Assembly (NCBI RefSeq): GCF_022846255.1
Contig: NZ_AP025682.1
Reading direction: 5' to 3' (one strand)
DNA length: 64,000 nucleotides
Origin: Escherichia coli
GTDB taxonomy: Bacteria; Pseudomonadota; Gammaproteobacteria; Enterobacterales; Enterobacteriaceae
The notes beneath the pieces were generated by a model. The model did not search any database. It had not been told where the DNA came from and saw only the letters and a list, made by a program, of their open reading frames with translations. Every line of letters starts with the position of its first letter. Within the stretch, counting starts at the first letter, position 1. Both the position numbers and the translations under genes were made by a program. Shown piece by piece: positions 7,625 to 8,413 of this stretch.

Positions 7625-8413
7625 TCATAATAATTGCGGCGGCGCAAAGCGACGGTTGTTTAAGACGGGCAGTTGCGCGCGCACCTGACGCACACGTTCG
7701 GGCGTCACTTCCGCCATAATGAGTGAAGGCATTTCTGACGCTGCCGCAATGGTGACGCCAAAGGGATCTATAATCCGGCTTTGCCCGATATTTTTGTTCC
7801 CGCACTCCCCCGCCGCCACCATATAACAGGTGGTATCCAGCGCACGAGCGGCAAGCAACGTTGACCAGTGATGCTCTTTGAGCGGCCCGCGAACCCAGGC
7901 GGCAGGAAGTACCAGGATTTCAGCTCCCTGTAATGCCTGTGCCAGCGCCAGCTCTGAAAAGCGTAAGTCATAACAGGTCATCAGACCGACCTTCATCCCT
8001 TCCACCTCCAGTAATGGAGCTATTTCATTACCAGCATCAACATGGCGTGATTCCTGAATGGCAAATGCATCATAGAGATGAAGTTTGGCATAACGGGCAA
8101 CGATGTTTCCTGCCTGAAGTGCCACCAGCATATTCCATGCGCGCCCCGGTGTTGAAGGAACATGAATCGTCAGAATTGTCGTCATCATGTTACGTTTACT
8201 TTCTCGCCGTAAACGTCCGAGGAATTCGCCTTCCAGCAGCTGTGCTGATTTAACCGATAGATCTGCATCATGATCATCACGCGCCAGCAATGCTTCCGGC
8301 AGGACAAACAGCGATACGTCGTTTTCCGCCGCCTGCGCCATCAACGAGGCACAAATCTCAGCGTTCTTTTCCCACACAGATGTCACAGCAAACTGTCCTG
8401 CAGCAACCAGCAT
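7625..8413 (-). CDS. ybeM: Carbon-nitrogen hydrolase (nitrilase superfamily) protein, apparently intact
   Basis: 262 aa from ATG at 8413 (GGAGG 5 nt upstream; ORF track starts at GTG 8419); nitrilase-like sequence features. Confidence 0.85.

Follow-up and report, generated by a model that had tools for sequence, protein, structure and literature searches.

ybeM in an Escherichia coli genome: an intact, probably active deaminated glutathione amidase gene with a rare Pro153Ser substitution

When a gene that is recorded as a pseudogene in the K-12 reference is found to read through in another strain of Escherichia coli, one has to ask whether an ancestral, functional allele has been retained, or whether the open frame hides a change of another kind. 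The question is raised here by ybeM (7625..8413, minus strand), a gene in a 64,000-nucleotide stretch of E. coli DNA that was analysed as a whole and is referred to below as the window. A sequence-only reading had described an uninterrupted gene of the nitrilase superfamily at this place, had given the K-12 copy as annotated as a pseudogene, and had suggested that this strain may retain the ancestral functional allele. The gene, the name of its enzyme, and its pseudogene status in K-12 are already known and can be read from standard annotation. What the analysis adds is limited to two details, how common the K-12 deletion is among complete genomes and a private substitution, P153S, and neither will surprise the specialist. 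The reading that we consider highly probable, from comparison of sequences, is that window positions 7625-8413 hold ybeM, encoding deaminated glutathione (dGSH) amidase (EC 3.5.1.128), the bacterial orthologue of mammalian Nit1 and yeast Nit2, in the form of the common intact allele plus P153S, and that the enzyme is most likely active.

In the ORF listing of the window, the region is covered by a single long minus-strand ORF (7625..8419), which begins with GTG and would encode 264 aa. An in-frame ATG at 8413 (8413-8411) gives a product of 262 aa, which is the form of the protein in the RefSeq annotation of other strains. The CDS as we define it, from the ORF list, the profile matches, and the annotation elsewhere, thus consists of 262 codons and a TGA stop codon (7627-7625). 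A Shine–Dalgarno sequence, GGAGG (8419..8423, minus strand), is visible in the letters themselves and is followed by a 5-nt spacer (TGGCA) and the ATG at 8413, so the ribosome binding site noted earlier is indeed present. The alternative GTG start (8419-8417; 264 aa) was rejected, since it overlaps the Shine–Dalgarno sequence and is therefore an improbable start for ybeM; RefSeq, too, uses the ATG. On the downstream side lies tatE (7293-7496, minus strand), on the same strand, and on the upstream side the divergent crcB (8506-8889, plus strand). The order tatE-ybeM-crcB is the same as in annotated E. coli genomes, and the coordinates, length, and neighbours first given for an uninterrupted 262-aa gene were all right.

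One further reading frame deserves a word. An antisense ORF of 106 aa inside ybeM (7933-8253, plus strand) is most likely a chance ORF within a conserved gene, and was treated as such. Short out-of-frame fragments of ybeM from UTI89 led to filamentation when overexpressed in a published screen, an effect that the authors deemed non-physiological (PMC6206680).

In a RefSeq record of K-12 MG1655, the orthologue (b0626) is annotated as a pseudogene and described as 'frameshifted', just as the earlier reading had it. The K-12 locus is orthologous DNA with the same neighbours and is 98.5% identical to the window over 1 kb; the alignment contains 14 substitutions and one 1-bp deletion. It is this alignment, proposed with the earlier reading as a means of finding the lesion, that locates it: the G at window position 8214 (gene nucleotide 200), in codon 67 (CGT, Arg; 8213..8215, minus strand), is missing in K-12 and present in the window. 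The original K-12 frame ends at about codon 77, roughly ten codons past the deletion. Since the shifted frame runs unbroken as far as the normal stop, the 1-bp deletion is the sole lesion. The 'pseudo gene ybeM' of MG1655 has been put to use as an integration site (PMC7242477).

The K-12 deletion is by no means confined to K-12. Of 5424 complete E. coli genomes, 860 (~16%) match a 60-mer across it exactly, human, pig, and environmental isolates among them, so the deletion is a polymorphism found in nature rather than an artefact of the laboratory. At the same site, 3625 of the 5424 have an exact match to the intact 61-mer, and the rest differ by SNPs. The open ybeM frame is the ancestral and majority state in E. 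coli, and it is what one should expect in a non-K-12 strain; those who take K-12 as their metabolic reference should keep in mind that it is without a dGSH repair enzyme that most E. coli have. Where ybeM is kept, it is under purifying selection, as indicated by a dN/dS of 0.03-0.11 between intact alleles. A loss of the gene that is independent of the frameshift is found in strain JNE21-003 (E. coli O166:H15, NZ_AP041809.1, locus 281-3198), in which ybeM is split by the IS21-like element ISEc62 (istA/istB). Length variants with two or three additional bases were considered as further pseudogene alleles and rejected, since these bases lie in intergenic DNA and ybeM keeps its length of 789 bp.

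With respect to family, the product matches two profiles that bear out its earlier placement in the nitrilase superfamily. The Pfam profile CN_hydrolase (PF00795) is matched by residues 3-245 with 138.7 bits against a cut-off of 23.2 (E = 2.9e-40; profile positions 2-255 of 256), and the NCBIfam model de_GSH_amidase (NF033621) with 447.7 bits against a curated cut-off of 355 (E = 1.1e-134; profile positions 2-260 of 260), while the next-best NCBIfam family reaches just 80 bits. Given these two E-values, the ORF is not a product of chance. The 1-kb ybeM region was found in 5424 of 5426 complete E. coli genomes, and 'deaminated glutathione amidase' is the annotation in every one of the matches listed among these complete genomes. 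The YbeM of BL21(DE3) (WP_000959109.1) shares with that of the window the locus tatE-ybeM-crcB, its length, and its catalytic residues, and is identical to it at 259 of 262 positions.

The catalytic residues can be assigned by alignment with characterized enzymes, and their conservation was assessed in a set of 114 full-length representative homologues (32-48% identity). The general base is encoded by codon 40 (Glu; 8294..8296, minus strand), which aligns with E54 of NitFhit (1EMS) and is counted as invariant in the homologue alignment, with Glu in 112 of the 114. The catalytic lysine is encoded by codon 110 (8084..8086, minus strand; aligned with K127 of NitFhit; Lys in 113 of 114) and the nucleophile by codon 147 (Cys, TGT; 7973..7975, minus strand), which aligns with C169 of NitFhit and with C169 of yeast Nit2 (Cys in 113 of 114). 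Codon 121 (8051..8053, minus strand) supplies the second glutamate of the E-K-E-C tetrad (Glu in 112 of 114), a residue whose catalytic role is known for the nitrilase superfamily generally. The Glu-Lys-Cys triad, the absence of which would have spoken against the enzyme, is thus in place.

An AlphaFold model of YbeM, made with 102 homologues as input, has a pLDDT of 97.4 and a pTM of 0.94. Its best Foldseek matches are the Nit2 proteins of K. lactis and S. cerevisiae (TM 0.90), with Nit2, NitFhit, and other C-N hydrolases at TM 0.86-0.90, so that the model is predicted to have the alpha-beta-beta-alpha sandwich. When solved structures are ranked by sequence, C. elegans NitFhit comes first with its Nit domain (1.3e-28), followed by yeast Nit2 (1.2e-25). 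Taken together, yeast Nit2, mammalian Nit1, and NitFhit (4H5U, 4HGD, and 1EMS) resemble the window YbeM in fold (TM 0.90), in the E-K-C triad, and in the CYDxRFPE context of the nucleophile. They differ from it in that the identity is only 28-30%, and that the window protein is shorter, without the yeast insertions or the Fhit fusion, and has Ser at the motif Pro.

This last difference is the one that distinguishes the window allele. Codon 153 is TCA (Ser; 7955..7957, minus strand), where the other E. coli searched have CCA (Pro), a C>T change on the coding strand at window base 7957. The common allele (WP_001330455.1) is identical to the window YbeM at 261 of 262 positions and has the same catalytic residues; both it and the BL21(DE3) protein have Pro at 153, unlike the window. 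His124 and Ser230, in contrast, are common polymorphisms that occur in WP_001330455.1 as well. A 61-mer around the Ser153 codon has no exact match in any of 5418 complete E. coli genomes. The exact Ser153 protein (WP_137502041.1) is found on a handful of contigs, whereas the otherwise identical Pro153 protein is found on at least 1000. The Ser153 contigs come from four DDBJ/NCBI datasets (DRR322657, DRR322658, DRR102846, and GCA_005387665.1) and, over 2.9-6.8 kb, match the window at every base, from which it follows that P153S is real and confined to one clonal lineage.

As far as can be judged from these comparisons, then, the window allele is the common intact allele with one recent, lineage-private change. 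The suggestion that the strain may retain the ancestral functional allele stands in part: the frame is intact, and function is likely. Nothing has been specially retained, however, the intact state being that of the majority, and P153S is derived. An intact ORF should not be equated with an ancestral allele: in this copy, a residue that hardly varies elsewhere has undergone a private substitution.

How serious is the substitution? Ser153 falls in the motif CYDLRFPE (C147-E154), six residues past the nucleophile Cys147 and between the invariant R151 and the near-invariant E154 of the homologue alignment; where the pattern after the nucleophile is C-Y-D-x-R-F-P-E, the window reads C-Y-D-L-R-F-S-E. 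Membership of the dGSH amidase family is not formally defined by this motif. It is nevertheless possible, although we regard it as the doubtful reading, that the ORF is intact and the enzyme crippled, P153S being a loss-of-function or strongly hypomorphic mutation and the gene a 'cryptic pseudogene'. Position 153 is kept about as strongly as the catalytic residues, with Pro in 111 of the 114 homologues, Ala in two, Gln in one, and Ser in none, and the homologue profile penalizes P153S by 4.6 bits, the same as E40Q (C147S is penalized by 7.8 bits). Its restriction to one clonal lineage fits a recent, possibly mildly deleterious mutation. Moreover, ybeM is dispensable in many strains, and its repeated loss, through the frameshift in 860 genomes and the insertion in JNE21-003, implies that loss is tolerated and that a damaging missense allele could persist. 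If P153S does inactivate or destabilize the enzyme, E. coli would be losing ybeM by a third independent route, besides frameshift and IS insertion, and the species would be giving up dGSH repair again and again, in a way that escapes annotation pipelines.

Against this stands the mouse Nit2 (2W1V), an active amidase of the same branch, which reads CYDMRFAE and so has Ala at the position of residue 153; Pro is thus not required for catalysis as such, and Ser153 is probably tolerated for the same reason. A search of the literature on what the motif Pro does brought nothing of use. In the AlphaFold model, residue 153 is the first of a helix (153-161) directly past the nucleophile turn (147-151). 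Ser is small and is generally well accepted at the N-terminal position of a helix. The pLDDT of the Ser153 stretch is ~98, which is weak evidence where a point mutant is concerned. On balance, the analysis of homologues and the model lead us to believe, with reasonable rather than full confidence, that the Ser153 enzyme is most likely still active, possibly with reduced stability or activity.

What such an active enzyme would do is suggested by its relatives; the substrate, dGSH, is taken from orthology and from the curated NCBIfam model, and the chemistry from the family. Now and then a transaminase would remove the amino group from the glutamyl residue of glutathione and so give rise to dGSH. 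Cys147 would attack the amide carbonyl of dGSH to form a thioester, with Glu40 as the general base and with Lys110 and Glu121 stabilizing the tetrahedral intermediate; water would then free 2-oxoglutarate, the other product being Cys-Gly. The role of YbeM would accordingly be one of metabolite repair, that is, the clearing of a useless side product of transaminases. Peracchi and co-workers reportedly assayed the dGSH amidase activity of E. coli YbeM itself in 2017. YbeM has been equated with the NIT1 dGSH amidase (PMC8788347), and hydrolysis of deaminated glutathione, a transaminase side product, by mammalian Nit1 and yeast Nit2 is described in a further paper (PMC5714238, citing Peracchi 2017).

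One might object that the protein is an active C-N hydrolase with some other substrate, either an omega-amidase acting on 2-oxoglutaramate or another small-amide hydrolase. The dGSH assignment is, after all, drawn from orthology, substrates have notoriously been transferred wrongly between branches of the nitrilase superfamily, and the Nit1 and Nit2 branches score alike in Foldseek. Mouse and human Nit2 and E. coli YafV do resemble YbeM in superfamily branch, in fold (2W1V, TM 0.90), and in being amidases of the metabolite-repair type, but they differ in substrate class (2-oxoglutaramate), and Nit2 has Ala at the position of residue 153. We consider another substrate improbable. NF033621 is passed by a wide margin, whereas NF007757, which is described only as 'amidohydrolase' and which we take to be a YafV-like, omega-amidase-type model, gives 57 bits against a cut-off of 249. 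The nearest matches in sequence and structure are NitFhit and yeast Nit2, both Nit1 orthologues, and not mouse Nit2 or yeast Nit3, and E. coli has a separate 2-oxoglutaramate amidase in YafV. The assignment as dGSH amidase is therefore the one that we keep.

Finally, the Ser153 codon, as a single base change within an otherwise identical 2.6-kb block, could be suspected of being a sequencing or assembly error for a true Pro153 allele, but this is effectively refuted by the occurrence of the Ser153 protein in at least four independent datasets on contigs that are 100% identical to the window.

The block in question is window 6797-9398 (2.6 kb; tatE, ybeM, crcB, and cspE), which differs from strain TCM3e1 at one base, 7957. 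The flanks (the 5' half of lipA, and pagP with the pagP-dcuC spacer, e.g., 9726-10461) are 1.5-2% divergent from TCM3e1, with several indels. Judged from this pattern of identity, the block and its divergent flanks look like a recombination mosaic.

Close to the block, between lipB and lipA, lies ybeF (window 5408-6226), which encodes a LysR-type regulator and is present as a remnant of ~350 bp with an ORF at 5667-6008 (plus strand). In K-12, BL21, and TCM3e1 the gene is longer by ~602 bp. The short form occurs at full length in strains such as UTI89, S88, and APEC O1, which belong to phylogroup B2, and is annotated as a pseudogene in UTI89. The window thus has an intact ybeM and a dead ybeF, and K-12 the reverse.

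The 92-bp spacer between ybeM and crcB gave no Rfam match to a fluoride riboswitch at the gathering threshold. A sigma-70-like site, TTGCCA and TAAAAT separated by 16 nt (8413..8440, plus strand; 10 of 12 consensus matches), would be aimed at crcB and overlaps the ybeM start and ribosome binding site; this is a consensus match only. The same consensus scan found no promoter for ybeM on the minus strand, and shuffled sequence yielded at least as many sites as the real one. For CFT073, a ChIP peak of NsrR has been reported close to ybeM.

A search for tRNA genes across the whole 64,000-nt window found none. The Rfam cspA thermoregulator (RF01766) matches with 136 bits over cspE and its leader (8895-9343, minus strand), as is expected of paralogues in the cold-shock family. 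Farther from ybeM, matches at the Rfam gathering level were obtained for the rnk leader (22321-22429, plus strand; 124.9 bits), the sRNA STnc70 (26234-26327, minus strand; 44.1 bits), and ES036/CssrF (54668-54709, plus strand; 42.2 bits).
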